Shown piece after piece: positions 14 to 64,000 of a stretch of 64,000 nucleotides of DNA; position 1 is the first letter of the stretch; each line of letters starts with the position of its first letter. The DNA lies in NCBI GenBank assembly GCA_964585475.1, contig CAZPDF010000003.1, positions 7,983-71,982 on the forward strand, read 5' to 3'. This DNA is from an uncultured Candidatus Saccharibacteria bacterium. GTDB lineage: Bacteria; Patescibacteriota; Minisyncoccia; Sungbacterales; HO2-52-23. Position numbers and translations under genes: made by a program. The notes under the pieces were generated by a model. The model saw only the letters and a list, made by a program, of their open reading frames with translations. It did not search any database and had not been told where the DNA came from.

Positions 14-1393
14 TTAAGTACTATTTAGTTTTCTCACTTCTTCTTTGACTACTTCTCTGTCGTCCCAGGGAACCTTAGACCCATTCGGGCCCATGATCCA
101 TGACTCCGCGCCCTTGCCAGTGATAATAACCATGTCGCCCGCCTTGGCCGAGTGCAGGGCCGTACGGATAGCTTCGCGCCTGTCCAGAATTTTTCTTATG
201 GTTGGCGGTTGGCGGTTGGTAGTTGGCGGTTGCCGAAATCCTTGCACAATTTGTTCAAGGATTTCGGCGGGATTTTCGTCATATGGATCTTCATTGGTGA
301 GAATAATTTGGTCGCAAAAGCCCGTTGCAGTTTTTCCCATGACGGGCCGCTTCCATTTATCGCGTCCTCCACCAGCCGCACCCAAAACGCAAATCATGCG
401 CCCCCGGCCAGTCATCCTGAGTCCGCCGGTGGCGGAAGAAGGATCTCCTAGATTCTTCGCTTCGCTCAGAATGACGGAGCGATGCTGTAACGCACCATAC
501 ACCGCACGCAGTGAGTCGGGCGTGTGGGCATAATCGACAACCACCCCAAAGGGCGCGTGCTGGACAAACTCCATCCGCCCGGGAATTCCCGACATGCGTG
601 CGACAGCGCCTATGATTTTTTCCAATGAAATGCACAGGTTTAGGCCCGCGGAAATTGCCGCAAGTATGTTTAGAAAATTAAATTCCCCAAGGAGGGTAGA
701 GGAAATTGTGCGGCCGTTCACATCAAACGAAATCCCGCCGCCGCCAATCTCTATATTCTGTAGGACATGGGTTCTCTCTCCCATCACAACGCCTTCCTTG
801 CCATACCAATTTTTTTTTGCGGAGGTTGCCGAGGAAAACCTTTGCGCGTACGGGTCGTCACGGTTAATAATGGCCGCACCGTCCCTCGGCAGACGCCAGA
901 AAAGGTCAAGTTTTGCCCGAAGATAGCGCTCGAAGCTTCCGTGCGCCTCGATGTGCTCTGGGGAAACGTTGGTCATGACCGCCATGCGAAAATTGATGAA
1001 ACGGTGCCGGAATTGTTTCGTGCCCTCCGACGTCACTTCCAAAACCGCATGCGTGCAACCCGCGCGCCTGGCCTCATGCAAGAATTTCTGCAGGAAAAAT
1101 CTGCCCGGCATGGTCATTTTCTTATCATTTTTCTCCTCGCGGTCCTTTATGCGAAAACGCAGTGAGGATGCAGACGCGGTTTTCAGGCCGGCCTCGCGCA
1201 AAATCTCATGTATTAATTCCACGACGGTAGTTTTACCCTTGGTGCCGGTAACACCGATAACCATTAGCCGCCGCGACGGGAAACCGTAAAACAGCGCCGC
1301 AAAGAAGGCGAGAAATAAATGGTAGGCGGGTCGCAGAAAAGAAAAAACGCGGCTCGGTATTAATTTTTTAAATATCGCAAGCGTACGCTCCAT
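14..1393 (-). CDS. murE: Mur ligase, most likely UDP-N-acetylmuramoyl-tripeptide ligase MurE; carries two in-frame repeat insertions
   Basis: GVTGTKGKTT P-loop motif typical of Mur ligases, then DYAHTPDSL and GGGRDKWKRPVMG C-terminal domain motifs. A 22-aa stretch SVILSEAKNLGDPSSATGGLRMT (nt 411-476) and a RQPPTTN repeat (nt ~196-236) interrupt otherwise conserved regions. Confidence 0.7.
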   Translation of the reverse strand: MERTLAIFKKLIPSRVFSFLRPAYHLFLAFFAALFYGFPSRRLMVIGVTGTKGKTTVVELIHEILREAGLKTASASSLRFRIKDREEKNDKKMTMPGRFFLQKFLHEARRAGCTHAVLEVTSEGTKQFRHRFINFRMAVMTNVSPEHIEAHGSFERYLRAKLDLFWRLPRDGAAIINRDDPYAQRFSSATSAKKNWYGKEGVVMGERTHVLQNIEIGGGGISFDVNGRTISSTLLGEFNFLNILAAISAGLNLCISLEKIIGAVARMSGIPGRMEFVQHAPFGVVVDYAHTPDSLRAVYGALQHRSVILSEAKNLGDPSSATGGLRMTGRGRMICVLGAAGGGRDKWKRPVMGKTATGFCDQIILTNEDPYDENPAEILEQIVQGFRQPPTTNRQPPTIRKILDRREAIRTALHSAKAGDMVIITGKGAESWIMGPNGSKVPWDDREVVKEEVRKLNST

Positions 1394-1879: not shown

Positions 1880-1889
1880 GGAGGAGAAC

Positions 1890-2909
1890 TTAAAACTTAG
1901 AACTTAGAGATCGGGCGAGGATATATGCCCTATAAAGCCACGGGCGATAAATAATATCAATCGTCGGAGGATATTCAACATCCTTGCCGCCGAAGCCCTG
2001 CTTAAACCGAGTGAGACCCGGCCAGCGTTTTTCATCGATTCCCCCAAAATCGTAATATTTGAATCCGTGGCGCTTGGCCTCCTGCATAATTCTCCAGTGG
2101 AGCAGATGCGGCGCCATCATCTCTCGGGACTCGCGGCTGGATGCGCCGTGAAGATAGGTGGCGGTGCCCGAGGGCTTGTAAAAATTTATCATGGCGGCGG
2201 CAAGCAGTTTTCCCTGAAATTCGGCAAAAAAAAGTTCGGTTGCACAGTTTTCCGATCGGACACTGGGCAGTTTAACGTAGTGCTCTCGCTCATGCAGATG
2301 GAATTCGTCTCGCACCGCGGTCTCTCGGAGAAGCGCGAGAAACCTAAGGATATTCTCGTTGTTATATGCGGCTTGCAAAGCGACCACTCCCTTGCGTTCG
2401 GCCAGACGAATGTTATAGCGCGTCTTATCGTGCATGGCCGCTAGCAATCCGTTTTCCGGTTTTTGAAGATCCGCAACAATGGTTCTTTGCGGCTGGACCG
2501 GTCTTGAAACTTTAAACTTTAAACTTCCAACTTTCAACTTTTCCGCGACGTCTATTCGCAAAAAAATAGCCCCCTCTTCGCGCGCGATATTCCTGGCACC
2601 CATCAAGAAATCGTTTACCCCGCCCTTGAACCCCGCTCTTTCGGAAAAGGGCGGGGTGAATGCTCCGTCTTGCCGCGGGGTTATCATAGCATTCGTGTTT
2701 ATCCTTACCGCAGGGCTTAACGCTCCGTGGTCAAGGGCGGGGTTTACTCCTTCACGAAAAACCGGCCGTGGGCAATATAAATAATGAAGGCCACGCCAAA
2801 GATCATGACGAATGAGCAGCACGCCGGCTACGCGGTGCGTTTCTCTGCCAATAAGTTTTTGGGATTCCTCCCATTCGGAGGACTGAAGGAATGAGGCTTG
2901 ACCTACCAT
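1890..2909 (-). CDS. FemAB-family peptidoglycan interpeptide-bridge aminoacyltransferase
   Basis: FemX/FemAB-like sequence over its length (KTRYNIRLAERKG..., FHLHEREHY..., ATYLHGAS..., HLLHWRIMQEAKRHGFKYYDFGG). Adjacent to murE. Confidence 0.55.
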   Translation of the reverse strand: MVGQASFLQSSEWEESQKLIGRETHRVAGVLLIRHDLWRGLHYLYCPRPVFREGVNPALDHGALSPAVRINTNAMITPRQDGAFTPPFSERAGFKGGVNDFLMGARNIAREEGAIFLRIDVAEKLKVGSLKFKVSRPVQPQRTIVADLQKPENGLLAAMHDKTRYNIRLAERKGVVALQAAYNNENILRFLALLRETAVRDEFHLHEREHYVKLPSVRSENCATELFFAEFQGKLLAAAMINFYKPSGTATYLHGASSRESREMMAPHLLHWRIMQEAKRHGFKYYDFGGIDEKRWPGLTRFKQGFGGKDVEYPPTIDIIYRPWLYRAYILARSLSSKF

Positions 2910-10357: not shown

Positions 10358-12979
10358 TTAAATCTTTCCCTGTTCTCCCCAGTTTGCCCCCGCTTTCACG
10401 TCCACGACGAGCGGGACTTTTAACTCGGCAGCGCTCTCCATAATTTTTTTAATCATTCGTACGCCTTCGACAGGCTCAGGCAATAACATTTTTTCATTGA
10501 CCTCAAACAAAAGCTCGTCATGGACTTGAAGAAGCAACCGGACATCGTTCTCTAATTTTTCTTTCTTAATCCACTCGTCAACTTTAATCATGGCGATTTT
10601 GATAATATCTCCGGTTGCCGAACCCTGCACAGGCATATTAACAGCCATGCGTTCCGCCTCCCGACGCAGTTGCCAGTTCGGGGAATGGATTTCGGGAATG
10701 TAGCGGCGCCGTCCAAAAATTGTTTCCACATATCCCCGCTCTTCAGCAAAGCGCTTGGTCCGCTCGATATAATCTCGGATTCCGGAAAAATCTTGAAAAT
10801 ATTCGTCAATGAATTTTTTGGCCTCCTCCCGCGACATGCCGGTTGACTCGGCAAGTGCTTGCGACCCCATTCCGTATAGAATCCCAAAATTAAGGGTCTT
10901 CGCGGCCCGGCGTTGCTCGGCCGTTACTTTTTCAAGCGGGATGTTATAGATCTCGGAGGCGGTCATTTTATGAATATCGAGTCCCTTTTTGAAGGCCTCG
11001 ATCATTTTTTTATCATCCGCCAAATGAGCCGCGACCCGAAGCTCAATCTGCGAATAATCGAACGACACTAGTTCGTATCCCTTCTCCGCCACAAAGGCCT
11101 TTCGAATCTCGCGCCCGACCTCGGACAGGACGGGTATATTCTGAAGATTGGGGTCGGAGGAAGAAAGCCGCCCCGTTACCGTGCCGGTCTGATTAAAAGT
11201 GGTGTGCACCCTTCCGGTTTTTGGATTTATAAGCTCGGGGAGCGCATCAACATAGGTAGTTTTTAACTTCATTAATTCGCGATAGCGAAGAATTTCTGCG
11301 ATAATCGGGTGCGTTTCGCGAAGTTTTTCTAGCTCGGATTCACGGGTGGAAATAACTCCTCCTTTTTCCGTTTTTCGAAGCCCTAGAGTTTTTATTTTGA
11401 GCCCTTCAAAAAGAATACGCGACAACTGCTGAGACGAATTGATATTGAATTCTTCTCCCGCAAGTTTGTAAATTTTTTTAGTGAGGTCCAAGAGTTCACT
11501 ATCTATCTTTTTTGCGAGCCGCCCCAAAAAATCCTTGTTGATAAGAATTCCGCGGTCCTCCATGTCGGCGAGAACCCTCGCCACCGGAAGCTCGATCCTC
11601 TCGAGCACCTCCCGAAGTTTTCCGGAAGAAAGTTTGGTTTCGTACGATTTCACGATTTCAAAAAAATGCGCGAATTCTTCCCGGACGTCGGGCGCGAGAA
11701 GCCGTCCGAGCTCTCGCACGGCGATCGCGGGGAACGAGAAATCGCGGAAAACCGTGCTCGTAAGATAGGCCGCGGTCATGAGGTCAAACCGTATTTTCCC
11801 GAGTTCGATTCCGTAGGCGCGAAGAAGGTGGATGATTGATTTTCCGTCATGCACGAAAAACTTCTCGCCCTCCAAGCCCTTTTTGACACGCGCCTCTCGG
11901 AAAAGCCGTGGATCAAGGATAAAGACCCTTTTTCCTTCCCGGGGAATCAAAAAAAGATCCCCGCCTTCAAAAATAAGAGCAGCGTCCTGCCACGCACTAT
12001 CGCCGAGGCGTTTTTCTATATTCTCCGGCACGAGCTTCTCGATTTTTGCTTCCCCGATCTCCGTAGACGAAATAAGGGCCGGCTGAATCATTACCTTCTC
12101 TTTTCCCCCCTCGAGGCGTTTTAATAAACTGAAAAAACCGTATTTTTGAAAAACTTCCCGGATTTTCTTCTCGTCCCCTCCGTCCTTCCAGCGAAGTTCG
12201 TCCAGGCGGAAGGTTACGGGAACGTTGGCACGAATAGTGACAAGTTCTTTTGAAAATTTGGCGTCCTTTTCCCCCTCTTTCAATTTGGCCGCGATTGATT
12301 CCGAAACCTTTTTGGTCCCTTTTTTCAGCGCCTTATACACACCCTCAACGGATCCGAATTCGCGGATAAGTCCCGCTGCCGTCTTCTCCCCTATACCCTT
12401 GACTCCGGCGATATTATCCGACGGGTCACCTTTCAGCCCCTTAAAATCCACCAGCTGCGCGGGCTTAAGGCCGTAGCGCTCGACTACTGCTTTCTCGTCA
12501 TAAATAACGGTCTCGGTGATGCCCTTTTTCATTGAATAAACCTTGAGCCGCGGGCGGACAAGCTGGAGCGCATCGAGATCTCCGGTGACCACAACGATTT
12601 CCGTGTCCTTTTGGCCGAACAATTTTTTAGCTATGGTTCCGATGATATCATCCGCCTCAAATCCCTCTTTTTCAAAAACCGGAATTCCGAATGCGTTCAG
12701 CACCTCCCGCACCTTGGCAAACTGGCTTGAGAGATCAGTTGGGGTCTCCGGCCTCTGCGCTTTATAGCGCTCGTAGGCGATATGGCGAAAGGTCGGCCCC
12801 GGCAAATCAAAAGCGGCCGCGATGTAGTCGGGTTTAAGTTCGCGCAAGACCCGCAAAAGCATCGTCGTAAATCCGTAAACTGCGTTCGTGGGTTCGCCGG
12901 AGGGCGAGGTCAGGGGCGGAAGAGCGTGATAGGCGCGGTGGATTATGGCGTGGGAGTCGATTAAAATTAAACGCTTCAT
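10358..12979 (-). CDS. polA: DNA polymerase I
   Basis: N-terminal 5'-3' exonuclease domain (LILIDSHAIIHRAYHAL) and a C-terminal family A polymerase domain (motifs A/B/C, e.g. LVSFDYSQIELRV, QVHDELLFE). Confidence 0.95.
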   Translation of the reverse strand: MKRLILIDSHAIIHRAYHALPPLTSPSGEPTNAVYGFTTMLLRVLRELKPDYIAAAFDLPGPTFRHIAYERYKAQRPETPTDLSSQFAKVREVLNAFGIPVFEKEGFEADDIIGTIAKKLFGQKDTEIVVVTGDLDALQLVRPRLKVYSMKKGITETVIYDEKAVVERYGLKPAQLVDFKGLKGDPSDNIAGVKGIGEKTAAGLIREFGSVEGVYKALKKGTKKVSESIAAKLKEGEKDAKFSKELVTIRANVPVTFRLDELRWKDGGDEKKIREVFQKYGFFSLLKRLEGGKEKVMIQPALISSTEIGEAKIEKLVPENIEKRLGDSAWQDAALIFEGGDLFLIPREGKRVFILDPRLFREARVKKGLEGEKFFVHDGKSIIHLLRAYGIELGKIRFDLMTAAYLTSTVFRDFSFPAIAVRELGRLLAPDVREEFAHFFEIVKSYETKLSSGKLREVLERIELPVARVLADMEDRGILINKDFLGRLAKKIDSELLDLTKKIYKLAGEEFNINSSQQLSRILFEGLKIKTLGLRKTEKGGVISTRESELEKLRETHPIIAEILRYRELMKLKTTYVDALPELINPKTGRVHTTFNQTGTVTGRLSSSDPNLQNIPVLSEVGREIRKAFVAEKGYELVSFDYSQIELRVAAHLADDKKMIEAFKKGLDIHKMTASEIYNIPLEKVTAEQRRAAKTLNFGILYGMGSQALAESTGMSREEAKKFIDEYFQDFSGIRDYIERTKRFAEERGYVETIFGRRRYIPEIHSPNWQLRREAERMAVNMPVQGSATGDIIKIAMIKVDEWIKKEKLENDVRLLLQVHDELLFEVNEKMLLPEPVEGVRMIKKIMESAAELKVPLVVDVKAGANWGEQGKI

Positions 12980-12984
12980 TTTTC

Positions 12985-13085
12985 AGACGAATAGCCGCGA
13001 ATCCTTGACGAATGAACGCGAATCGCGAATCCGCGCGGATCCTAAATAATCATTCGTGATTCGTGAAAATTCGTTGGTCATTCGT
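12985..13085. repeat. CACGAAT/ATTCGTG-rich palindromic intergenic element, copy 1
   Basis: Five CGAAT copies followed by five ATTCG(TG) copies around a central GGATCC. Confidence 0.5.
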
Positions 13086-13587
13086 GCAAATTCGTTTTAA
13101 GTATACGTTCGTGAAGATTCCTGCCGTGTTTAAATTTTATCCAGAGCGCAGATTTGGGTATCAATTTGCGAACATGGTTTGCCCACTCGATAGGAATTAT
13201 GGCATCCCGGTCTTTCAATAAGTTTTTGAGCCCGAGGTGTAGTAAATCTTTGGGAGAGTTGAGGCGGTAGCAATCAATGTGAATTAAGTGTCTTAACTTT
13301 GGGTTTTGGGCTTTGGGCCCCGCGCCAGAACCTATGGTTCGGTGCGGGGCATGCTTTGGACTTATTTGGTAAATCTTCATCAGTACAAACGTGGGGCTCA
13401 AGACATTTTCCTTTACTCCCAAGGCCCTGGCAAGTCCCTGAACAAAAGTCGTTTTTCCGGAACCCAAATTGCCTTCAAGGGCCAGTACCAAAGCCGACGA
13501 TCTCGGCTGCATTTTAAGAATCTTTTTGACTAATAAGGCCGCTGTTTTTTGGGTCTCGGTCGGGCTTTTCGTTTTAATTTCCAGCAT
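13078..13587 (-). CDS. tsaE: tRNA threonylcarbamoyladenosine biosynthesis protein TsaE
   Basis: LEGNLGSGKTTFVQGLARALGV P-loop and HIDCYRL motifs of YjeE/TsaE. Start assigned to the internal MLEIKTK. Confidence 0.8.
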   Translation of the reverse strand: MLEIKTKSPTETQKTAALLVKKILKMQPRSSALVLALEGNLGSGKTTFVQGLARALGVKENVLSPTFVLMKIYQISPKHAPHRTIGSGAGPKAQNPKLRHLIHIDCYRLNSPKDLLHLGLKNLLKDRDAIIPIEWANHVRKLIPKSALWIKFKHGRNLHERILKTNLHE

Positions 13588-14304: not shown

Positions 14305-14425
14305 CGCGCTACGAATGAGGCGAAGAACGCCCATCAATAAATACACGAATTTTACCGCGCACCAATATCACGAATAGAAATTCGTGCGGTTCGTGCGGAA
14401 ATTCGTGGACAAATTCGTGGCAATG
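14305..14425. repeat. CACGAAT/ATTCGTG-rich intergenic element, copy 2
   Basis: CACGAAT x3 followed by AATTCGTG x4. A TTATCCACA nonamer lies at 14271. Confidence 0.5.
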
Positions 14426-15638: not shown

Positions 15639-17303
15639 GTGGTCAAGCCACAAGAGGAAAAAGCCGAGCGTAAAATTGAATTCCTGCGGAGGAAGGAAGA
15701 GGAAGAGAGCGTAAAGATGCTCGCCGCCAAATACAAAATTCCCTATCTTGATCTTGCGATCTATCCTGTGGAGACCGATGCGCTACGCATAGTGACGGAG
15801 GAGAAAGCGCGGATGGGAGAACTTGCCGTGTTCCAGGTGGCGGGAACAAATATTAAAATTGGCGTGAGAAACCCCTCCAAAGAAGAGACCGGGCCCGTTT
15901 TAAAGCGGCTGGAGGAGAATCGCTACCGGATCGAATTGTTTCTGGTATCCAGACACGGCCTGGAGCACGCCTGGAGTTTCTATCGGAAGGCAACGGAAAA
16001 AAAGACGGTCGAGACCGGAGTCATCCAGGTTTCCAATGAAAAAATAGCGAGTCTCGCCAGGGAAATCACCAACGTTACAGAAATAAAGGACCGCATAGCC
16101 AAGACCTTCTTCGGAAGAACCACGGAGGCCCTTGAAATTATACTCGCCGGGTCCCTCGCGGTCGACGCCTCGGACGTTCACGTTGAACCGCAAAAAACAG
16201 GAGTGCGGATCCGCTTCCGGCTTGACGGCGTCCTACAGGACGTTATCGATATCCCGCCCAAACTTTATTCGCTCCTGCTTTCTCGCATAAAACTCATCTC
16301 CGAACTAAAGCTAAACATCCACGATAAAGCCCAGGACGGGCGCTTTACCATAAAAACCGACTCAGCCGACATAGAAGTGCGCACCTCGGTTCTCCCGGGC
16401 CCTGATGGAGAAAATATCGTCCTGCGGATACTCAACCCGAAAACCATACAAGTTCCCTTTGAGAATCTGGGTATACAGCCCTGGGTAATCGAAACGATGG
16501 AGCAGGAGCTTAAAAAACCCAATGGCATGATTCTAACCACCGGCCCGACCGGTTCCGGAAAAACAACGACCCTTTATGCTTTTTTAAGAAAAATTCACTC
16601 TCCTGCCATAAAAATCATTACCCTCGAGGACCCGATCGAATACCACCTGCCGGGCGTCGAACAGACCCAGGTTGATCATGCGGCAGGATATGATTTTACA
16701 ACCGGTCTCCGCGCGATTTTACGCCAGGACCCCGATGTTATACTCGTCGGCGAGATAAGGGACATGGAAACAGCAGAAACCGCCATGCACGCAGCGCTTA
16801 CCGGCCACCTTGTGTTCTCGACTCTCCACACCAATAATGCCGCTGGAACCGTGCCGCGGCTTCTCGACCTTGGAGTAAAACCGGCTATTATCGCGCCCGC
16901 GATCAACGTATCCATGGCGCAGCGGCTTGTCCGCAAGCTCTGCCCAGCATGTCGCTTTCCGGCGAAGCCCCCCAAAGCCAAACTTAACGAAATAGATAGG
17001 GCTCTCGCCGGCCTTCCGAAAGGAGTTCCAAGGCCCGCGGCAAACGCCTGGACGATATACGCAGCCCAGGAGAACGGGTGTTCCGCCTGTAACAACACGG
17101 GTTACAAGGGCAGGATCGGCCTTTTTGAAATCATATTGGTGGACGAGTCCATAGAACATCTTATTTTGAAAGAACCTTCGGAATATGAAATACAAAAAGT
17201 GGCGCTGGGTCAGGGCCAGATCACCATGGCGCAAGACGGACTTCTCAAGCTTCTTGCCGGCACCACAGATTTTGCGGAACTAATAAGGGTTCTCGGCGTC
17301 TGA
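15639..17303 (+). CDS. type II/IV secretion system ATPase (GspE/PilB family)
   Basis: Walker A TGPTGSGKTTT and Walker B LVGEIRD. C-terminal tetracysteine CPAC...CSAC. The N1 domain has the GspE-N fold. Confidence 0.9.
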   Translation: MVKPQEEKAERKIEFLRRKEEEESVKMLAAKYKIPYLDLAIYPVETDALRIVTEEKARMGELAVFQVAGTNIKIGVRNPSKEETGPVLKRLEENRYRIELFLVSRHGLEHAWSFYRKATEKKTVETGVIQVSNEKIASLAREITNVTEIKDRIAKTFFGRTTEALEIILAGSLAVDASDVHVEPQKTGVRIRFRLDGVLQDVIDIPPKLYSLLLSRIKLISELKLNIHDKAQDGRFTIKTDSADIEVRTSVLPGPDGENIVLRILNPKTIQVPFENLGIQPWVIETMEQELKKPNGMILTTGPTGSGKTTTLYAFLRKIHSPAIKIITLEDPIEYHLPGVEQTQVDHAAGYDFTTGLRAILRQDPDVILVGEIRDMETAETAMHAALTGHLVFSTLHTNNAAGTVPRLLDLGVKPAIIAPAINVSMAQRLVRKLCPACRFPAKPPKAKLNEIDRALAGLPKGVPRPAANAWTIYAAQENGCSACNNTGYKGRIGLFEIILVDESIEHLILKEPSEYEIQKVALGQGQITMAQDGLLKLLAGTTDFAELIRVLGV

Positions 17304-17530
17304 ACTAGTAACTGGTTACTAGTTACTGCCTTCTGGGGCCGTGGGCAATTACTCCGGTTTGGGAACACGGAGGCTAGAATTTCTCCCAGGCACAGTTCAG
17401 TAACTGGTTACTAGTAAACTAGTGACCAACCAGACTGCCCTGGTTTAAAAATCCCCATTAAGGTCTGAGTCCTCACACCTTAATTGCCCACGGCCTCAGC
17501 AGACAACCGGTTACCAGTTACTGGCAACTA
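17303..17530. other. long nested inverted-repeat structure, candidate structured RNA or regulatory palindrome
   Basis: Outer heptamer palindromes (TAGTAACTGGTTACTAGTTACTG at 17305 against CCGGTTACCAGTTACTGG at 17505) and an inner 15-bp perfect inverted repeat (GGCCGTGGGCAATTA at 17337 / TAATTGCCCACGGCC at 17476) enclose about 125 nt. Confidence 0.4.
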
Positions 17531-17565
17531 AAAAGAGGGCGCTACCCCTCCTAGTACCTATACCC

Positions 17566-17697
17566 AGTAGTAGTCTTCGGCAGTAATGTTAGGCGGCCCC
17601 GAATTTATAAGTAGAACACGGGTAACTCTAATAAGTTCTCGCGGTGAACACGCCCCTATTCTAGCGGCAAAGCTGCAGCCGAAGAGTTACTCCCGGG
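17566..17697. repeat. MITE-like element with imperfect ~20-bp terminal inverted repeats, copy 1
   Basis: 5' end ...CCAGTAGTAGTCTTCGGCAG and 3' end CTGCAGCCGAAGAGTTACTCCCGGGC are reverse complements of each other. Both termini are shared with the 21514-21697 copy. The core is different. Confidence 0.5.
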
Positions 17698-17786
17698 CAT
17701 AGAAAATCTACAAAAACTATACTAAATTATCCGGGTTCGGCCGAGTCCTGTCAATATGCTACTTATTATAACAAAATAAAAATATT

Positions 17787-18806
17787 ATGTCAAATGCTCC
17801 CTTGGTGGCTCCGCACCGCGAGAAAGAAGATGTGGTGCTGGACCTTACCCTTCGCCCACAGCGTTGGGAAGAGTACATCGGACAGGAACGCCTTAAAAAG
17901 AATTTGCGAATTCATATTGACGCGGCCAAAAAAAGAGGAGAGCCGATAGAACACATCTTATTGTCGGGGCCGGCCGGCCTTGGCAAAACCAGCATGGCAC
18001 ATCTTATTGCCCGCGAAATGAATACCAATATCCGTGTAACCTCCGGCCCGGCAATTGAGCGCGTGGGGGACCTCGCCTCCATTCTCACCAACCTCCTCCC
18101 CGGAGACATTCTTTTTGTGGATGAGGCGCATCGCTTAAATAAAATGGTGGAGGAGGTACTCTACCCAGCCATGGAATCGCGCACGCTTGATATCGTAATA
18201 GGTAAAGGGCCGTCGGCGCGCACCATACAGATCGAATTACCTCCTTTTACCCTTATGGCGGCGACCACCCGCATCGGGTTACTTTCCAGCCCCCTTCGCT
18301 CCCGCTTCGGCGGGTCTTTCCGTCTGGATTTTTATACCCGGGGCGAAATCGAGAAAATTATCGCGCGCTCCGCCAATATACTCCGGGTAGAAATAGAAGC
18401 TTCGGCCATCGGGGGCCTCGCGCGTGCAGCCAGATTCACCCCCCGCGTAGCCAACCGACTCTTGAAGCGCGCGCGTGACTATGCCGAGGTTCACGGGAGC
18501 GGAGCCATTACCGAGGAAATAGCGGGGCGTGCGCTTGCTCTTCTTGAAATTGACGCCTCGGGCCTCGAGTCTATGGACCGCAGGATTCTCGCGGTCATAA
18601 TCGATAAATTCGGGGGTGGGCCGGTAGGGCTTGCGGCCCTGGCCGCGGCGTCCGCCGAGGAGGAAGAGACGATTGAAGAAGTGTATGAACCCTATCTCAT
18701 GCAGCTTGGTTTCATCGAACGGACCCCAAGAGGAAGAACAGTCACGGAGCTCGCGTATGAGCACCTGGGGCGCGCGGTCAAAAAACAAAAGCCCCTGTTG
18801 GCATAA
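17787..18806 (+). CDS. ruvB: Holliday junction DNA helicase RuvB
   Basis: AAA+ Walker [14 protein letters not shown] and Walker [12 protein letters not shown]-terminal winged helix. Confidence 0.95.
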
Positions 18807-20428: not shown

Positions 20429-20462
20429 CAATTGAAAATTGAAAATTGAAAATTGAAAATTG
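20429..20462. repeat. tandem octamer AATTGAAA x4 upstream of ruvC
   Basis: caATTGAAAATTGAAAATTGAAAATTGAAAATTGtg. Confidence 0.6.
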
Positions 20463-29055: not shown

Positions 29056-29296
29056 TCTTGCTGTATTTATTCTCCGTTTCTATCAAAAAACAATTTCGCC
29101 CGATCACGGAATTTTAGCCGGTGTTTGGGGAGGAGCACGGTGCCATTTTTTTCCTTCCTGCTCAGAATACGCGGTCGCCGCCATCCGTCAATATGGACTA
29201 ACATGCGGGTCTGTGGTGTCGCTTAAAAGAATTGCGCGCTGTCATCCGTGGAGTGCGGGAGGGTACGACCCCGTAGTCTTAAAACCGAAATCCTAA
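29015..29296 (+). CDS. yidD: membrane protein insertion efficiency factor YidD
   Basis: GGARCHFFPSCSEYA with the conserved cysteines. Lies between rnpA and yidC. Confidence 0.8.
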   Translation: MKNSTKHFPKLLADLAVFILRFYQKTISPDHGILAGVWGGARCHFFPSCSEYAVAAIRQYGLTCGSVVSLKRIARCHPWSAGGYDPVVLKPKS

Positions 29297-29320
29297 ACCC
29301 GAAATTCTAAACCGACCGTA

Positions 29321-29430
29321 GGTCGTCCTGAACGAAGTGAGGTCCCTAAGTCGCCGGAGGCGACCGGGATCCCGGCCGAAGGCCTAGGGAGAACTCGGGG
29401 CTCCTTCGTCGCTTCGCTCCTCAGGACGGC
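29321..29430. repeat. GTCATCCTGAGCG-family palindromic element (RPE-like), copy B, nested in a larger palindrome
   Basis: GTCGTCCTGAACGAAGTGAGG ... CCTTCGTCGCTTCGCTCCTCAGGACGGC. Flanked by inverted CCTAAA/TTTAGG tracts (29290-29475). Confidence 0.6.
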
Positions 29431-29477
29431 GTCCTAAGGGACGTCAGTTTAGGATCTAGTGCTTAGGATTTAGAATT

Positions 29478-30218
29478 TTGAATCCATTCAATTTTGTCTA
29501 CACAGAATTTCTATGGCGCCCGTTATTTAACGGGCTCGTTTGGCTCTATGCGGTTATTCCGCCGCACGATCTTGGCCTGGCCATTGTTATCCTAACGGTC
29601 CTGATTCGGGCTATCCTCACCCCCCTGCTTCTTCGTGCACAGAAATCACAGCGCGACTTTGCGCGCCTTCAGGGCGAGATCAAGCAGATCCAGGAAAAAT
29701 TTAAAGGGCATCGTGATGCTCAGGGAAAAGCAACAATGGAGCTTTACCAGCGTGAAAAGGTAAACCCCTTTTCGGGCTGTCTTATGGTACTTATTCAGGG
29801 CCTCGTGCTCTTTACTCTATTCCCGCTCTTTCGCCAGGCTCTGGACCCGGCCATGCTTGTCTTTCTTTACGCATTTGTGTCAAACCCCGGGCCGATGAAT
29901 ACCATAAGTTTCGGGGTTCTTGATCTTGCCCAAGCTAATCTATATTGGGGGGCGCTCGCGGCGGTAAGCCTCTATTTCCAAACCAAACTCGGCGCTCCGG
30001 CTCTTCCCGCCGCCTCCGGCCCGAACGATTTTTCCCGCATGCTGCAGAAGCAGATGCTCTACATGCTGCCGGTTATGATTTTCTTCTTTTCGATGAGTCT
30101 TCCCGTCGCCATCACGCTTTACTGGACAATTTTAAACATTCTTGGTATCGTGCAGGAGATCCTAGTACGCAAGTTCCAAATTCCAAGCGCCAAAGTACAA
30201 ACAAATTCCAAGACCTAA
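29478..30218 (+). CDS. yidC: membrane protein insertase YidC (short form)
   Basis: Five-transmembrane short YidC pattern. Follows yidD. Confidence 0.85.
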   Translation: MNPFNFVYTEFLWRPLFNGLVWLYAVIPPHDLGLAIVILTVLIRAILTPLLLRAQKSQRDFARLQGEIKQIQEKFKGHRDAQGKATMELYQREKVNPFSGCLMVLIQGLVLFTLFPLFRQALDPAMLVFLYAFVSNPGPMNTISFGVLDLAQANLYWGALAAVSLYFQTKLGAPALPAASGPNDFSRMLQKQMLYMLPVMIFFFSMSLPVAITLYWTILNILGIVQEILVRKFQIPSAKVQTNSKT

Positions 30219-30309
30219 GGCCTAAATTCCAGACACGTTTCGAAACCAGAGCGTTAGAATTTCGGTATTGTTTGTGATTTGGAATTTGTGATTCTGGATT
30301 TTAAGGAAG

Positions 30310-35702: not shown

Positions 35703-35779
35703 GTTATCCTGAACGCAGTGAAGGATCTTTATTCCTCGGTATATCATACGGTTGAGGTGCTTCGCTTCGCTCAGCATGA
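35703..35779. repeat. GTCATCCTGAGCG-family palindromic element, copy C, between the two VirB4 ORFs
   Basis: GTTATCCTGAACGCAGTGAAGGA ... GCTTCGCTTCGCTCAGCATGAC. Confidence 0.65.
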
Positions 35780-35837
35780 CATTTTGAGACTCTTTTCTAC
35801 GGTTTCATCTTATCCCCGATCTGGTACATGTTCGTGG

Positions 35838-41645: not shown

Positions 41646-41789
41646 GTCATTCTGAGCGCAGCCGAGCGAAGCGAGTCCTGAGCGATAGCGAAGGAGCCCA
41701 TACGAGAGACCCCTCACTGCGTTCAGGGTGACACTCCATGTCAGATTCTTCACTTCGTTCAGAATGACGATCGAAGGGTTCAGGACGAC
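41646..41789. repeat. GTCATCCTGAGCG-family palindromic element, composite copy D
   Basis: GTCATTCTGAGCGCAGCCGAGCGAAGCGAGTCCTGAGCGATAGCGAAGGA ... CTTCACTTCGTTCAGAATGAC ... GGTTCAGGACGAC. Confidence 0.6.
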
Positions 41790-44075: not shown

Positions 44076-44150
44076 AAAACCACAAATATGCACACGAATT
44101 TAGCACGAATAACACAAATATAATTATGTTTCATTCGTGCGATTGGTGGG
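44076..44150. repeat. CACGAAT/ATTCGTG-rich intergenic element, copy 3
   Basis: CACGAAT x2 and ATTCGTG within an AT-rich palindromic context. Confidence 0.4.
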
Positions 44151-45042: not shown

Positions 45043-47034
45043 TTACAACTCGACGTCTTCCATCTCCTCGTTTATCTCGATAAGGTGTTCCGGTATCTCC
45101 GAGATAAACCTAGAGGGCGGATTAACCTGAATTGAGCCAAAATGGGTGCGCCGGAGCGCAAAAGTAAGGAAAACTTTGGCCCGCGCCCGGGTAAGCCCCA
45201 CGTAGCAGAGACGCCTCTCCTCTTCAAGTTCTGCCGGATTGAAAAGAGAACGGGAATGCGGAAATACCCCCTCTTCCATCCCGACCATGAAGACAATGGG
45301 AAATTCGAGTCCTTTGGCCGCATGAAGGGTCATTAAGTTTATGACCGGTTTTCCGGTTTCTATTTGGTCCGCCTCGGTCATAAGCGAGACGTCCTCGAGC
45401 ATGGACTCAACCCCCCCCGGAGGCTCGGCGGCGTCATATTTTTTGGCAAGGGTTACGAGCTCTTTTACGTTATCCCAGCGTTCCTCGGCATTCGGTGAGC
45501 TGTCCTCGAGATAGTCCTGGTACCGAATTATTTTTATCAAGCCCCTTAAGAAGTCCACCGCATGCTTTTTTGAAAGCCCCTCTTTTAATTTTTCCACAAG
45601 CCCATCGAACTCTTTAATTTTTTCCCTCTCGCGCTCGCGAAGCGAGCCGAGTTCTCCGGTGGCCCTGGCAAGCAGCGCGCGCGCCCCAATTCCGCGGGGA
45701 GGAACGCTTAAGACGCGCTTTAGACTTTCGAGATCCGCCGGATTCAAGAGATAGCGGAGGTAAGCGAGAATGTCTTTTATTTCCTTCCGCTGATAAAATC
45801 TTACCCCGCCGATAATTTTATAAGGTATATTTTCATCAAGAAGCGCCTCTTCCAGCGCCCGCGATTGGGCGTTTGTCCGATAGAGTACCACCATGTCCGT
45901 TAGTTCGTAGCCGCGCTCGCTAAGATCCTTTATTTTATTAACCACGAGCCCTGCTTCGGCTTTTTCATCTTCGGCTACGCAAAGTTCCAGCTTTTCTCCT
46001 GGCTCGTTCTCGGTCCAGAGTGCCTTATCCCTTTTAAGGGTGTTTTTAGAGATAAGGCCGCGCGCCGCATCAAGGATTATCTGGCTTGAGCGGTAGTTTT
46101 GATCAAGAATAACGACCTTGGCTTCCGGCCAGTCCTTCTCGAAAGCAAGAATGTTTCTGAAATCCGCCCCGCGCCAAGCGTATATTGCCTGTGCGTCGTC
46201 TCCCACCACGGCAATGTTTCTATATTTTTTAGCGAGTTCCGATATGAAAATATATTGGGCGTGGTTCGTATCCTGCCATTCGTCCACGTTTATATAGCGA
46301 AAACGGTCTTGGTACTGTTCCAAAACATCCGGATGCAGTTCAAAAAGTAGACACACATTTCCGATAAGATCGTCAAAGTCCATCGCGTTTGATTCGCATA
46401 GGCGTTTCTGGTAGGCGGCATATGCTTTATGGATCGTTTTGGGAAATAGGTCTTCGAGTCCGGCTGATTCTCTATATCGTTCCGGTGTCAATAGTTCGCC
46501 CTTGAGCCGTGAAATAGTTGCCGAGATCGCTCCGGCCGAAAACTGTTTAGGATTGATTTCCTGTTCTTTCATAACCTCTTTGATCAGCGAAAGCGAGTCA
46601 TCAGCGTCCATAATGGTGAAATTTCGCAGATACCCAAGTTTTGAGGCATGCGAGCGGAGAATACGTACCGCCAGCGCATGGAAGGTGCCGATGAGCGGAA
46701 TTGATATCCCGCTCAAGAACCCAGAACTTAGCATATTAGAACTTAGCTCTCTTCCCGGAATCTTAGTTTCAAGTTCTAAGTTCTTAGTTCTTAGTTCTAG
46801 GTTCTCGGCGAGGAGGGATTTTATCCGAGCCGCCATTTCACCCGCTGCCTTGTTGGTGAATGTGACTGCCAGAATCGCCTCCGGTCTGACCCCATTATTT
46901 AGAAGATGGGCCACCCTATGGGCAAGAACCCTTGTCTTGCCACTACCCGGGCCTGCTAAGATTAAAACTGGCCCCCCTGTTGCAAGGACCGCTTCCTGCT
47001 GCTTGGGGTTAAGATTTTTGACGAAATCAGCCAT
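45043..47034 (-). CDS. pcrA: UvrD/PcrA-family ATP-dependent DNA helicase
   Basis: Walker A AGPGSGKT and SF1 helicase motifs. An internal NLELRTKNLELETK tract is encoded by AGTTCTT heptamer repeats at 46738-46800. Confidence 0.9.
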   Translation of the reverse strand: MADFVKNLNPKQQEAVLATGGPVLILAGPGSGKTRVLAHRVAHLLNNGVRPEAILAVTFTNKAAGEMAARIKSLLAENLELRTKNLELETKIPGRELSSNMLSSGFLSGISIPLIGTFHALAVRILRSHASKLGYLRNFTIMDADDSLSLIKEVMKEQEINPKQFSAGAISATISRLKGELLTPERYRESAGLEDLFPKTIHKAYAAYQKRLCESNAMDFDDLIGNVCLLFELHPDVLEQYQDRFRYINVDEWQDTNHAQYIFISELAKKYRNIAVVGDDAQAIYAWRGADFRNILAFEKDWPEAKVVILDQNYRSSQIILDAARGLISKNTLKRDKALWTENEPGEKLELCVAEDEKAEAGLVVNKIKDLSERGYELTDMVVLYRTNAQSRALEEALLDENIPYKIIGGVRFYQRKEIKDILAYLRYLLNPADLESLKRVLSVPPRGIGARALLARATGELGSLREREREKIKEFDGLVEKLKEGLSKKHAVDFLRGLIKIIRYQDYLEDSSPNAEERWDNVKELVTLAKKYDAAEPPGGVESMLEDVSLMTEADQIETGKPVINLMTLHAAKGLEFPIVFMVGMEEGVFPHSRSLFNPAELEEERRLCYVGLTRARAKVFLTFALRRTHFGSIQVNPPSRFISEIPEHLIEINEEMEDVEL

Positions 47035-48433: not shown

Positions 48434-48522
48434 GAAACCACGAATTAGTACACGAAAGCCGCACTAATGACATGAATAAACGATATGAACATTCGTGTTG
48501 TTCGTGAATCGATTCGTGGTTT
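48428..48522. repeat. CACGAAT/ATTCGTG palindromic element, copy 4
   Basis: GGAAACCACGAAT ... ATTCGTGGTTTTATATTTCC. The ends are inverted copies of each other. Lies between convergent genes. Confidence 0.5.
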
Positions 48523-51425: not shown

Positions 51426-51484
51426 AGAATGCCTTAAGTTAAAATCTCAAATCACAAATTTCAAATAACAAACTGACGCAGTGC

Positions 51485-56743: not shown

Positions 56744-58213
56744 ATGGCCCAAAAAACTTCTATTCCAGATGCAGTTAAAGAGGTGGTTGAAAAACTGCAA
56801 AATGCCGGATTTGAGGCCTATATTGTCGGTGGCTGCGTACGGGATTTGCTGCGTGGAGAAAAACCCAAGGACTGGGATGTCACGACTTCGGCGCATCCGG
56901 AGGAGATTATAAAAATCTTTCCGGAGAGTTTTTATGAGAATAAGTTTTTGACGGTAACGGTAAAGACGGGGTCGGAGGACCAGACGCTTCGCGAAATCGA
57001 AATAACGACGTTTCGCGCCGAGGGGAAATATACGGACAAACGACACCCGGACGAGATAAGATTTGCCAAAACGCTCGAGGAGGATTTGTCCCGCCGTGAT
57101 TTTACGATTAACGCAATGGCGATGGATGCGGAGGACAATTCAACCGACCCTTTTGAAGGACAAGCGGATTTGAAGAAAAAAATTGTCCGCGCGGTAGGAG
57201 AGCCGGAGAAACGTTTTGATGAAGATGCCCTGCGGATGATGCGGGGTGTGCGCCTCGCGACCGAATTAAATTTTACTATAGAGGAAGAGACGGAGCGCGC
57301 GATTAAGAAATTGGCCGGCAACCTTCAATTTATCGCCAAAGAGCGAATCCGCGACGAGCTAGTTAAAATTATCGGAACTCCCCACGCGCGGGAAGGTATT
57401 GAGCTGCTCCACGAACTCGGACTCCTCAAATTTATAATTCCCGAACTTGAAGAAGGAATCGGAGTTGAGAATCGTCCAAGGGTTTTTACCATTTGGGAGC
57501 ACAACTTAAAAGCGTTGGAATACGGGGCAAAGACCAAATTCCCGCTTGATGTTAAGATCGCGGCCATGCTCCATGATGCTGGGAAGCCCCGCACCAAAGG
57601 CCCCATGAAAAATAACGAGTGGACTTTTTATGGGCACGATGTTGTGGGAAGCCGAATGGCGGCAGCCCTTCTCTTGCGGCTGCATTTTCCGCGGGAAACC
57701 GTAGAAAAAATATCAACGCTCATTCGCTGGCACCTTTTCAAGTACGACCCCGATGAGGGCATTACCGATTCTTCGATCCGCCGCCTGATCCGCAGAGTCG
57801 CGCCGGAAAATATGGATGATCTGGTCAAGCTTCGTATCTGCGACCGCATGGGCATGGGGGTTCCCAAGGCCGTTCCCTACCGACTGCGACACTTCCAATT
57901 CCGGGTTGAGAAAATTTTGCGGGAAGAAGAGACGCCGACACCAAAAATGCTCAAAGTGAACGGCGACGATATTATGAAAACTTTGGGAATCGAGCCGGGA
58001 CCGAAAGTCGGACATGTTCTTGAGGTGTTGCTACAAGAAGTAATTGATGAGCCCGTAAAGAATAGCCGTGAAAGTTTAGAATCGAGAATCAAGAATTTGG
58101 GGAAGCTCGAGGATAAGGAGCTCGTGAAGCTTGCCGAAGATGCCGAATCGAAAGTGGAAATGGTAGAAGATGAGCGAGTTTCGAAAATAAAGCAAAAGTA
58201 TTGGGTTAAATGA
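56744..58213 (+). CDS. cca: CCA-adding tRNA nucleotidyltransferase with HD domain
   Basis: AYIVGGCVRDLLRGEKPKDWDV Pol-beta nucleotidyltransferase motif and a downstream HD domain (MLHDAGK). Confidence 0.8.
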   Translation: MAQKTSIPDAVKEVVEKLQNAGFEAYIVGGCVRDLLRGEKPKDWDVTTSAHPEEIIKIFPESFYENKFLTVTVKTGSEDQTLREIEITTFRAEGKYTDKRHPDEIRFAKTLEEDLSRRDFTINAMAMDAEDNSTDPFEGQADLKKKIVRAVGEPEKRFDEDALRMMRGVRLATELNFTIEEETERAIKKLAGNLQFIAKERIRDELVKIIGTPHAREGIELLHELGLLKFIIPELEEGIGVENRPRVFTIWEHNLKALEYGAKTKFPLDVKIAAMLHDAGKPRTKGPMKNNEWTFYGHDVVGSRMAAALLLRLHFPRETVEKISTLIRWHLFKYDPDEGITDSSIRRLIRRVAPENMDDLVKLRICDRMGMGVPKAVPYRLRHFQFRVEKILREEETPTPKMLKVNGDDIMKTLGIEPGPKVGHVLEVLLQEVIDEPVKNSRESLESRIKNLGKLEDKELVKLAEDAESKVEMVEDERVSKIKQKYWVK

Positions 58214-62450: not shown

Positions 62451-62510
62451 ATTCGCTTGCGCTCAAATTAAAAATTGAAAATGCAAAATGAAAAATTTTT
62501 GAGTTAGAAT

Positions 62511-64000
62511 CTAAAACGGCCACTTCTCCACCAGTAGAAGTTGTTTATTTTCTATCGGGAGGTGGGCCCAAATCTCCTCGGTTATAAACGGAAGGAAGGG
62601 ATGAAGAAGCTTGAGCGACTCGGCAAGAACGTATAGAAGAATTTGCTGAGTCGACCCTTGGCTTTTGACATCCGACATTTGACCTTTTGATGCCTCAAGG
62701 TATTTATCGCAAAATTCATGCCAGAAAAAGTCATAGAGCGTATGCAGCGCCGGCCCGAAGTCATATTTTTCAATCCTCGTATTTATTTCTTTCTTGGTTT
62801 TTTCGAGCGCCGTCAGAATTTTTCTGTCGGCGGCCGTTTTTGGTTTAGTTGGTAGTTGGTAGTTGGTAGTTGGTAGTTGCGTAAGCACAAACCGGCCGGC
62901 ATTCCAGATTTTGTTGCAGAACTTTTTACCGGCGACGACGTGCTCTTCCGACCAGTGGATATCCTGACTCCTCATCGTCTGCCAGATAAGGCCGAAGCGG
63001 GTGGCATCGGCCCCGTAGCGCGAGATTAAATCCAGCGGGTCTATGCCCGTGCCGAGTGATTTTGACATACGCCTGCCTTCTTTGGTGAGAATGGTCGCGT
63101 GGATAATTACATCTTTGAAAGGGGCCCGCCCAACGAATTCAAGGCCTGAAAATATCATCCGTGCAACCCATAAATTAATTATACCACGGTCGGTTGAGAG
63201 CACCGAGGTTGGATAGAACGTTTCAAAATCTGTTTTTTGGGGTCTACCCGCCGAAACTTTAGCGGAGGCGGGCCACCCGAGAGCGGCCAACGGCCAGAGG
63301 GCGGAGGAAAACCATGTGTCCAGGACATCTTCCACTCCCTCAATCGGAATTTTATGGCCCCACCAGATTTGGCGTGAGACGCACCAATCCTTTACGTTTT
63401 TCAGCCAGTCAAAATAGACATTTTCCCAACGCGTGGGATGGAAACGGACCTTTCCGGATTTCACGGCCTCCATCGCCATTTTGGCAAGCTCGTCCATTTT
63501 GAGGAACCATTGTTTTGAGAGGAGCGGTTCAATCACGGCCCCGCAGCGATAGCAGATGGAGAGATTATGCATATAGTCCTCAGTCCGTTCCATGAGGCCG
63601 AGCTCTGTGAGGTCTTTTGTGATCTGCTCCCGCGCCTCTGCGACTTTGAGTCCCTCGTAGCGCTCGCCGGCTTCCGCGGACATCCTGCCCTTCTCGCCGA
63701 TTACTTTTAAAATCGGAATTTCGGGATGCCTCTGATAAATTTCAAAGTCGGTTTCATCGTGCGCCGGAGTTACTTTAATGATGCCCGTGCCAAACTCGGG
63801 ATCCGCGGCCTTATCGGCAATCACCTTGATTTTAATATCCTTGAGTTTTGGCGGCTGATCCCGCGGTATGGAGTTGTCTACGGACTGGATGACTATTTCT
63901 TTCCCTGCATATTTTTTGTACCGCTCGTCTTTGGGGTTTACGGCCAGAGCCGTATCGCCGAGCTTAGTTTCCGGGCGCGCGGTTCCTACGGTGAGCGGCC
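62511..64000 (-). CDS. valS: valyl-tRNA synthetase, 3' portion (gene continues beyond the window)
   Basis: KMSKS-type motif RMSKSLGTG, tRNA-binding arm and anticodon-binding domain. An internal LPTTNYQLPTTNYQLPT tract is encoded by GGTAGTT heptamer repeats at 62841-62880. Confidence 0.9.
   Translation of the reverse strand, partial: PLTVGTARPETKLGDTALAVNPKDERYKKYAGKEIVIQSVDNSIPRDQPPKLKDIKIKVIADKAADPEFGTGIIKVTPAHDETDFEIYQRHPEIPILKVIGEKGRMSAEAGERYEGLKVAEAREQITKDLTELGLMERTEDYMHNLSICYRCGAVIEPLLSKQWFLKMDELAKMAMEAVKSGKVRFHPTRWENVYFDWLKNVKDWCVSRQIWWGHKIPIEGVEDVLDTWFSSALWPLAALGWPASAKVSAGRPQKTDFETFYPTSVLSTDRGIINLWVARMIFSGLEFVGRAPFKDVIIHATILTKEGRRMSKSLGTGIDPLDLISRYGADATRFGLIWQTMRSQDIHWSEEHVVAGKKFCNKIWNAGRFVLTQLPTTNYQLPTKPKTAADRKILTALEKTKKEINTRIEKYDFGPALHTLYDFFWHEFCDKYLEASKGQMSDVKSQGSTQQILLYVLAESLKLLHPFLPFITEEIWAHLPIENKQLLLVEKWPF

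Follow-up and report, generated by a model that had tools for sequence, protein, structure and literature searches.

When a non-triplet tandem repeat slips by a single unit the frame is lost, and essential genes are therefore expected to be free of such repeats. How, then, did arrays of a 7-nucleotide (nt) unit come to be translated within murE, femX, tsaE, pcrA, cca and valS of one bacterium? We examined this for a 64,000-nt stretch of contig CAZPDF010000003.1 (assembly GCA_964585475.1), the whole of which is called the window below, where about 13 loci carry 3–5.6 tandem copies of a 7-nt unit; seven of the arrays are inside these genes (two in femX) and the remainder are intergenic (Table 1). 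An initial annotation of the window had described several of the tracts as repeats with an AACT core, pointing to a genome-wide mutational or repeat-spreading process tolerated in protein loops rather than to selected protein repeats.

The window is ~50.6% G+C with a coding density of ~91%, and Pfam supported the gene names (Mur ligase, FemAB, UvrD/PcrA, class-I tRNA synthetase with Val-type anticodon domain, TsaE, RuvC and CCA-adding enzyme). Its MurE protein is encoded on a 113-kb contig (k139_312523) of the ENA metagenome assembly ERZ27284378. Judged by sequence, the host is an uncultured, ultra-small, Parcubacteria/Sungbacteria-like bacterium of the candidate phyla radiation (CPR), since the closest MurE and PcrA relatives, just 58–64% identical, belong to Candidatus Sungbacteria/Sungiibacteriota and other Parcubacteria, and since gene order agrees with that of the complete Sungiibacteriota genome CP066690.1.

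Abundance, position and unit composition of the arrays

Arrays were called with Tandem Repeats Finder (TRF), using a cut-off of at least 2.8 copies for the period-7 counts, in the window and in comparison loci (given L numbers) that comprised 235 kb of CPR relatives and 598 kb of non-CPR controls (Chloroflexi, Firmicutes, Actinobacteria and others). TRF reported 10 period-7 arrays in the window (2.8–5.6 copies, 79–100% matches), a density of 1.6 per 10 kb compared with 0.12 per 10 kb in the controls, or ~13-fold more; the CPR loci held 35 such arrays and the controls 7. The commonest period was 7 in the CPR loci, whereas periods 3, 6, 9 and 12 dominated the non-CPR loci. Perfect lag-7 match runs of 20–29 nt were seen 11 times in the CPR loci and not at all in the controls. 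A strict scan of the window for periods 1–15 gave 5 period-7 tracts versus 0 in 30 Markov-1 random sequences (based on dinucleotide frequencies) and ~0 tracts for every other period, so that 7 alone was strongly enriched. The array trait is lineage-wide.

Within the CPR loci, 24 of the 35 arrays were inside open reading frames (ORFs), as were 7 of the ~13 window loci; nearly half of the latter are intergenic, most of them just 5' of start codons, and per kb the intergenic DNA is still ~9-fold richer in arrays than coding DNA. All tracts listed earlier were present at, or a few bases from, the positions first given for them: murE at 196–236 (with the peptide read correctly), the femX 3' end at 1885–1912, the internal femX AAACTTT tract at 2504–2543 and pcrA at 46738–46800 (compare Table 1). 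The valS array was likewise found, and is perfect; the peptide quoted for it, LPTTNYQLPTTNYQ, was wrong, the real one (QLPTTNYQLPT) being shorter. At 17305–17525 TAGTAAC/TGGTTAC units had been described as forming a long palindrome; the heptamers turned out to be no single long array but three short stretches which serve as outer stems of a composite hairpin. The arrays at 13297 (tsaE), 20430, 29280/29443, 30271, 51442, 58078 (cca) and 62465 were additional, as were the intergenic loci near start codons, the hairpins with array arms and the nested mini-element described below.

AACT or AGTT was present in 11 of the 35 units versus 2.8 expected, and 5–6 of 11 window arrays had AACT. The AACT core is thus a real bias, affecting about one third of the units, and does not hold as the rule or defining feature that it was first taken to be.

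Table 1. Heptanucleotide arrays and associated hairpins in the window; units are given in the sense of the gene where marked "sense"; dG, predicted folding free energy (kcal/mol); z, z score; aa, amino acids.
Feature	Position	Strand	Unit, product and context
murE loop-2 array	198..232	-	sense CAACCGC CAACTAC CAACCGC CAACCGC CAACC, 4.7 copies; encodes RQPPTTNRQPPT
murE coding hairpin, 13+3 bp	232..268	-	directly 5' of murE array; encodes AEILEQIVQGFR; dG -23.9, z -5.7
murE loop-1 imperfect palindrome, 66 nt	411..475	-	in frame, read as SVILSEAKNLGDPSSATGGLRMT
femX 3'-end array	1885..1908	-	AGAACTT/AAAACTT x3.4; supplies femX TAA stop; 6 nt 5' of start of next gene (1397-1879)
femX internal array	2503..2541	-	sense AAAGTTG/AAAGTTT x5.6; encodes EKLKVGSLKFKVS
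tsaE array	13297..13318	-	sense GCCCAAA x3.1; encodes GPKAQNPKL
Composite hairpin	17300..17530	+	directly after stop of pilB-like gene; dG -101.8, z -8.5
ruvC leader array	20430..20462	+	perfect (AATTGAA)4.7; abuts ruvC start codon
Inverted array pair	29280..29478	+	TAAACCC/GAAATCC 29280-29313, complement 29443-29478; GC-rich palindromic core of GTCNTCCTGA... type; z -3.2
Leader array	30271..30302	+	TTTGTGA/TTTGGAA (14-nt super-unit); ends 7 nt 5' of ATG at 30310
pcrA in-frame hairpin	46706..46812	-	AGAACTT-type array 46761-46805 (5-6 copies, ENLELRTKNLELETK), then inverted complement
pcrA inverted partner	46715-46745	-	AAGTTCT copies; whole hairpin dG -46.3, z -8.0
Intergenic array	51442..51472	-	sense ATTTGNN x4.4; 16 nt 5' of ATG at 51425
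cca C-terminal-tail array	58078..58096	+	short, AGAATCG/AGAATCA x2.7; encodes ESRIKN
Intergenic array	62465..62496	-	sense ATTTTNA x4.6; 14 nt from both valS stop and next start
valS array	62846..62879	-	perfect (CAACTAC)4.9; encodes QLPTTNYQLPT
valS small GC hairpin element	63241..63272	-	CCGCCTCCGCTAAAGTTTCGGCGGGTAGAC; in-frame ASAKVSAGRP; 9-aa insertion vs 1GAX

Reading frame, protein loops and orthologous sites

The array peptides are a three-frame read-out of one 7-nt unit. The arrays are located in insertion-tolerant loops or tails of solved homologues (those compared were PcrA 1PJR of G. stearothermophilus, MurE 4BUB of T. maritima and ValRS 1GAX of T. thermophilus), in agreement with the tolerance in protein loops proposed at the outset. 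The murE array loop is 7 aa longer than in 4BUB, and in the AlphaFold model of the window MurE (mean predicted local distance difference test score, pLDDT, 92) the array residues form coil between helix 375–387 and strand 398–401. The pcrA arrays lie within ~31 extra aa between residues 81 and 89 of 1PJR; the valS array replaces the loop linking the catalytic and anticodon-binding parts, with a net gain of 2 aa over 1GAX; the tsaE array is part of 18 aa that the orthologue in L053 does not have; and the internal femX array is in a variable loop between FLKIDP and LQPQKT. The net changes in loop length therefore varied (+2, +3, +7 and ~+31 aa), which argues that arrays grow in place or replace a loop, and do not arrive as a block of fixed size.

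Orientation was markedly asymmetric: among 22 arrays inside ORFs, the unit had stop codons in the antisense direction only in 10 cases and in the sense direction only in none. Perfect arrays were all built of stop-free units. Where a unit did bear a stop (AGAACTA/T in pcrA, AAAGTTT in femX), a point change was found exactly at the copy in which the stop would be in frame, so the internal femX array has a TCA codon where a perfect array would have TAA. Stop-containing units were more imperfect, a trend in the expected direction that was non-significant (n=3 versus 19, P=0.25); the 10:0 asymmetry of orientation is the stronger signal of selection. A reading of the peptides as protein heptads or coiled coils was rejected: many are rich in Pro, Thr and Asn, the units vary among orthologues, and the periodicity is exact in the DNA.

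We compared the same loops in relatives, beginning with an alignment of the window MurE and its 120 best homologues (121 in total). Both variable loops of the MurE C-terminal domain were filled with peptides of 7-residue period, including NPKSKIQNPK, NSKLKTKNSK, VPSSKFQVPSSRK, IRNPKSEILNFRK and QPSTANHQPSTV, which match the units AATCCAA, AACTCAA, GTTCCAA and ATCCGAA in three frames. At a lag of 7 the residue identity reached 0.15 and 0.14 in the two loops, compared with ~0.06 for other lags or the rest of the protein. The DNA of nine MurE orthologues confirmed the loop-2 arrays; the units were CAACCGC/CAACTAC in the window, CAACCAT in L050, perfect CAACCGC x4.4 in L051, CTACAAG/CTAAAAG in L049 (the locus of CP066690.1), CAATTTC in L052, and CAAGTTC in L054, L062 and L063 (perfect, x5, in the last). 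Measured from the conserved Gly-Phe codons, these arrays begin at one position; they have CAA in common, the other four positions being different. Identity inside arrays was 84–100%, yet the units differ among lineages; this is what concerted evolution would leave behind in an array of long standing. MurE loop 1 carries heptamer arrays in many relatives, and it is here that the window has its 66-nt palindrome, SVILSEAKNLGDPSSATGGLRMT, a 22-aa insertion compared with 4BUB (pLDDT <50 at residues 323–327).

Other proteins gave the same picture. The PcrA loop (NKAA–GTFH motifs) has 24–25 residues in G. stearothermophilus PcrA and in L002, and carries arrays with unrelated units in the window, L004, L026 and the Doudnabacteria locus L044; among them this loop has the units AGAACTT, CCTACAA, TCCGGCT, and AAGTTAA paired with CAACTTT. 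The FemX loop that holds the internal array is an insertion site in 4 of 5 relatives (L049, L051, L052 and L062). Unit sequence and array length differed between orthologues at 58–82% protein identity, and the loops are shared across a lineage whose MurE proteins are ~55–64% identical to that of the window. We looked in the relatives for a conserved peptide encoded by unrelated codons, the observation that would have spoken for selected protein repeats; the orthologous loops instead carry other units and hence other peptides, in agreement with the earlier view of the repeats as a feature of the DNA. Occupancy of the same loops indicates that arrays have lasted for a long time while their units turned over, or that these sites were targeted repeatedly, and speaks against random recent hits.

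Stability over short times was assessed with a Sungbacteria relative (MurE P0014) represented by eight contigs from different samples, which are 99.7–99.98% identical over up to 15 kb. There were zero indels in all five arrays of this region, including an intergenic one; the arrays are thus not hypermutable contingency tracts, and the length variation that had been proposed as a sign of slippage was not seen among these strains. If slippage operates it is slow, array change being seen only at much deeper divergence. An exact-sequence cluster look-up returned no near-identical variants of the window MurE, FemX or PcrA. An assembly artefact was rejected: the arrays were present in independent assemblies, in the complete genome CP066690.1, and identically in the eight samples. 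The original interpretation therefore stands for DNA-level repeats tolerated in loops; on the time scale of these strains the arrays are not unstable slippage tracts.

These data bear directly on whether the arrays could be phase-variation (contingency) switches worked by gain or loss of single units. Each 7-nt unit gained or lost does shift the frame, and heptanucleotide switches are known in Haemophilus (PMC8262952). However, murE, valS, pcrA, tsaE and cca have essential housekeeping roles, unlike the dispensable surface or restriction-modification genes of contingency loci, every array is in frame in every genome examined, copy number is identical in the eight near-identical strains, and the arrays are short (no more than 5.6 units). 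Phase variation is largely refuted by these observations and we consider it highly improbable.

Origin of the arrays and comparison with known heptanucleotide repeats

We read the arrays as heptanucleotide simple-sequence repeats (SSRs) of the long-SSR or short tandemly repeated repetitive (STRR) kind, unusually dense in one CPR lineage and here mostly inside genes. As to how they arose, we lean, with some reserve, to the explanation that such STRR-like repeats come from replication misalignment and are filtered by selection. Misalignment would make and homogenise runs of ~4–5 units, with slipped-strand pairing working within arrays and fold-back template switching building the inverted partner arrays. 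Selection would discard any variant that impairs an essential protein, so that a surviving array may have to satisfy four requirements: a total length that is a multiple of three, the stop-free strand as sense, a location in a surface loop, tail or mRNA leader, and a short length. Within an essential gene a change of plus or minus one unit would be a lethal frameshift and, because of this, the array would be locked by selection and could persist very long while its unit drifted and was re-homogenised. Locking together with unit drift would explain why orthologous loops carry different units across the lineage. Slippage as the generator, and any reason for a period of seven, are what we infer; the repeats and their enrichment, their spread over the lineage and its orthologous sites, their orientation, loop placement and hairpin pairing, the nested inserts and the short-term stability were observed.

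Several results weigh against this explanation. The density of arrays was uneven among related genomes (0 in L053, L002 and L003; 9 arrays in 13 kb of L051). The size range was narrow, 3–5.6 units with none above, and perfect lag-7 runs in the CPR loci were bimodal (up to 13 nt, then 20–29 nt); both argue against growth unit by unit, because such growth should give a declining distribution. The bias towards AACT/CAAC units and the recurrence of like units in separate genes are not predicted by purely local slippage, and the absence of indels in the P0014 strains extended even to the intergenic array. Finally, locking by frameshift does not explain why the period should be seven instead of 4, 5 or 8, since it would lock those periods too. 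The narrow size, the AACT/CAAC bias and the lack of short-term polymorphism keep alive the alternative that arrays are actively installed, which is taken up below with the hairpins.

The arrays might also be selected functional elements, those in leaders acting as regulator binding sites or as unstructured translation enhancers and those in genes as flexible linkers. Operators of Omega/ribbon-helix-helix (RHH) repressors are heptad WATCACW arrays in promoter regions; as candidates for the window arrays they were rejected, there being one WATCACW fit only (AATCACA in 51442–51472), with the other units unrelated and most arrays genic. Five arrays (1885, 20430, 30271, 51442 and 62465) end 0–17 nt upstream of a start codon, an ATTTGNN/ATTGAAA-like sense unit being common to four of the five, a parallel with the TAACTGA repeats of Beggiatoaceae (PMC4679880). 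The RNA of the valS array was predicted to be completely unstructured, as were the CA-rich coding arrays in general, and occupancy of the loops has lasted across the whole lineage; these results are also as expected of functional elements. Opposed to them is the wide variation of units within the genome and between orthologous sites, which no single binding protein or peptide function would fit. Many relatives have no arrays at the same loops and leaders, and the nearness of intergenic arrays to start codons is not clearly above chance at 91% coding. We judge selected function to be improbable as the explanation of the arrays.

An excess of heptanucleotide SSRs in prokaryotes is already known. 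In many prokaryotes no class of long SSR is described as more abundant than heptanucleotide repeats, for which the proposed cause is slippage of a polymerase that has a 7-nt footprint (Mrazek 2007, as cited in PMC4679880 and PMC4692102). In published accounts of these long SSRs and STRRs, which include the cyanobacterial STRR heptamers and GGGAATC/GGGGAYT of Xanthomonas/Nostoc, they resemble the CPR arrays in having tandem 7-nt units in few copies at many loci, an over-representation of period 7, direct and inverted arrangements, and differences between related species in length or sequence at the same intergenic sites. The same accounts describe long SSRs as mainly intergenic, with non-triplet units said to avoid coding DNA, whereas ~2/3 of the CPR arrays are in conserved housekeeping genes and are translated; the CPR units are A/C-rich, and those of the long SSRs so described are G-rich.

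The TAACTGA direct repeats of marine Beggiatoaceae, found also in cyanobacteria and Bacteroidetes (MacGregor 2015, PMC4679880), likewise have 2–6 heptamer copies, an AACT in the unit and many locations directly upstream of starts, and some overlap the stop of the upstream gene or are in ORFs at the protein periphery. Those genomes, however, have a single unit, and in Beggiatoaceae coding copies are rare (PMC4679880); the window has many units and a coding majority, in internal loops of essential enzymes. No match to TAACTGATAACTGA with up to two mismatches was present in the window. In Geobacter metallireducens, elements of GGACCGG x4 are present at 49 intergenic and intragenic sites, their function being unknown (PMC2700814); they are similar in having ~4 heptamers and in lying both between and within genes, and different in forming one GC-rich consensus family recognisable by BLAST, the CPR units being diverse. 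A search of the literature, incomplete in its coverage, found no report of heptamer or heptanucleotide repeats for CPR bacteria or Patescibacteria.

Three features seem new: the non-triplet arrays mostly inside housekeeping genes, contrary to the reported rule of triplet periods for coding SSRs (PMC4679880); the long retention of arrays in the same loops of orthologues throughout one CPR lineage while the unit turns over; and the nesting of arrays with mini-hairpin elements. At least six housekeeping enzymes of this lineage tolerate translated non-triplet repeats. The arrays may explain part of its extra protein length and low-complexity inserts. They bear on the long-noted, unexplained heptanucleotide excess of prokaryotes, and give a handle on peculiarities of CPR replication and repair, namely why seven, and why hairpins and arrays accumulate. 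For annotation, peptides of 7-aa period such as QLPTTNY, NSKLKTK and VPSSKFQ are to be taken as DNA-repeat read-through and not as conserved motifs. Lineages might be tracked by using the arrays, and the mini-elements nested in them, as markers.

Hairpins, inverted partners and nested elements

Palindromic arrays in the window were only the paired ones, in pcrA, at 17300–17530 and at 29280–29478. Among the relatives, L051 has inverted array pairs akin to that of the window pcrA both in femX and in intergenic DNA, and L044 has one in pcrA itself. The stems of the 17300–17530 hairpin are AGTAACT/GGTTACT stretches at 17304–17327, 17399–17420 and 17505–17522. A search of Rfam at gathering thresholds gave four tRNAs only, and 17200–17850 was without a match even at E<=1; the hairpin is therefore not a known RNA. 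The region 17300–17780 contains this strongly structured intergenic element, which could be either a palindrome like a miniature inverted-repeat transposable element (MITE) or an undescribed RNA.

The murE hairpin next to the array is perfect or near-perfect and is inside conserved coding sequence; at the equivalent position L050, L051 and L052 also have hairpins, though with other sequences. This suggests either selection for structure or mutation that perfects palindromes. A strong mutational bias of the latter kind is possible, and the murE coding hairpin may be a sign of it.

The murE loop-1 palindrome has a wider kin. It belongs to a family, GTCATTCTGAGCG...CGTTCAGAATGAC, of imperfect palindromes rich in GC, for which the window had 6 matches compared with 1.3 expected; the sites are at 411–475 (minus strand; the murE copy), 41646–41768, 29320–29440, 35768–35780 and 51485–51497. 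FemX has a ~45-aa insertion (2600–2775, minus strand) that is missing in five orthologues, the DNA of which is a GC-rich hairpin CCCCGCCCTTGAACC.../...GGTTCAAGGGCGGGG (z -3.5).

A further small element was found nested in arrays. In L052 and L054 one hairpin element, GCCGAGGCTTCGGCGGGCAGG, splits arrays of different units. L063 has five intact CAAGTTC units, and in L062 a GC hairpin insert of 33 nt separates the first three units from the last two, the proteins being 77% identical; in two MurE pairs (77% and 82% identical, the latter P0067/P0081) the difference is an insert of exactly 11 residues that interrupts the array midway. The valS element is of the type that sits inside heptamer arrays in relatives, and we suppose that arrays may serve as landing sites for this 27–33-nt GC hairpin mini-element. 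Copies of the ~27–33-nt GC hairpin element (..GCCGAGGCTTCGGCGGGCAGG..), which are read as (A)SAGRP-like peptides, were observed in the window at 63241–63272 (minus strand), in L052 at 11105–11135, in L054 at 1394–1425 and in L049 at 2115–2128.

Elements of comparable behaviour have been described in other bacteria. Rickettsia is known to have selfish repeats that are read in frame within essential genes. These Rickettsia palindromic elements (RPE) were reportedly described by Ogata et al. in 2000 as small, non-autonomous and inserted in frame in essential genes at surface sites, and are said to be dispersed copies of 100–150 bp with a common consensus, without tandem heptamers or 7-nt periodicity. 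Taking RPEs to be as so described, the pcrA hairpin and the 66-nt murE palindrome behave like them, as in-frame surface insertions of conserved proteins; the heptamer arrays do not, in that they have no common consensus and that single arrays, such as that of valS, have no predicted structure. Small dispersed repeats (SDR) of Nostoc, reportedly the subject of work by Elhai et al. in 2008, are said to be ~21–27 nt, to contain hairpins, to be present or absent between relatives and to nest in other repeats, and they may include heptameric tandem repeats. In form, the 27–33-nt GC hairpin that splits CPR heptamer arrays and is present or absent between relatives would be the analogue of such SDRs, from which it differs in its hosts and in its in-frame coding location, which is not known to be a feature of SDRs.

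A rival explanation is active, sequence-specific dispersal. As in the STRR/SDR system of cyanobacteria, a tiny element, either mobile or templated, would put blocks of ~4–5 heptamers at hairpin-prone or already occupied sites by means of a recombinase, a reverse transcriptase or gene conversion between array loci. We regard this as possible, if rather unlikely. The capped, narrow size range and the bimodal perfect lag-7 runs would follow from it, as would the recurrence of AACT/CAAC-type units in unrelated genes and different genomes. The palindrome AGTAACYRGTTACT is present both in the intergenic element of the window and in MurE loop 1 of L050, and at least nine homologues have its peptide, TSNQLL, in one or other of their MurE loops; composite palindromes have arrays as their outer inverted arms; the hairpin element is present or absent inside arrays of relatives that are 77–82% identical; and a diversity-generating retroelement (DGR) reverse transcriptase is encoded on the source contig. 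However, loop sequence was replaced with a variable net length and no fixed block was added, and orthologous arrays with the same phase and a shared CAA, but with the other four positions different, suggest evolution in place. No candidate enzyme is tied to the arrays, and neither insertion nor excision was seen among the eight close strains.

Sharing of units within the window also fell short of supporting dispersal. An identical unit was shared by three array pairs (murE/valS, femX 3' end/pcrA, and ruvC leader/62465) versus 1.0 expected (P ~0.1, composition-matched null), and the minimum rotation/strand distance among the window consensus units was no smaller than for random composition-matched heptamers. 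Unit sharing was therefore dropped as evidence, and no dispersal is claimed, because these tests were non-significant. A bolder form of the idea, which we think unlikely, is that a dedicated process writes the ~4–5-heptamer blocks at hairpin-prone sites and then maintains them, by reverse-transcriptase-like or fold-back copying with a 7-nt register or by conversion between array loci; arrays, GC mini-hairpins and small palindromes would then make up a mobile system of sub-100-nt elements that remodels the surface loops of essential proteins in CPR, in parallel with the cyanobacterial STRR/SDR. Replication misalignment filtered by selection is the explanation that we continue to favour.

Two observations concern other parts of the intergenic DNA and the flanking contig. 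The motif CACGAAT/ATTCGTG had 22 copies versus 7.5 expected, with clusters in both orientations at a spacing of 7–12 nt (13052–13086, 14344–14419, 44093–44139 and 48439–48518), all intergenic; these may represent terminator-like hairpins or binding sites. The retroelement mentioned above (a bAvd accessory gene and the reverse transcriptase), along with an rve integrase, is located at 17202–18581 of L001 (the source contig), ~6–9 kb past the murE end of the window.

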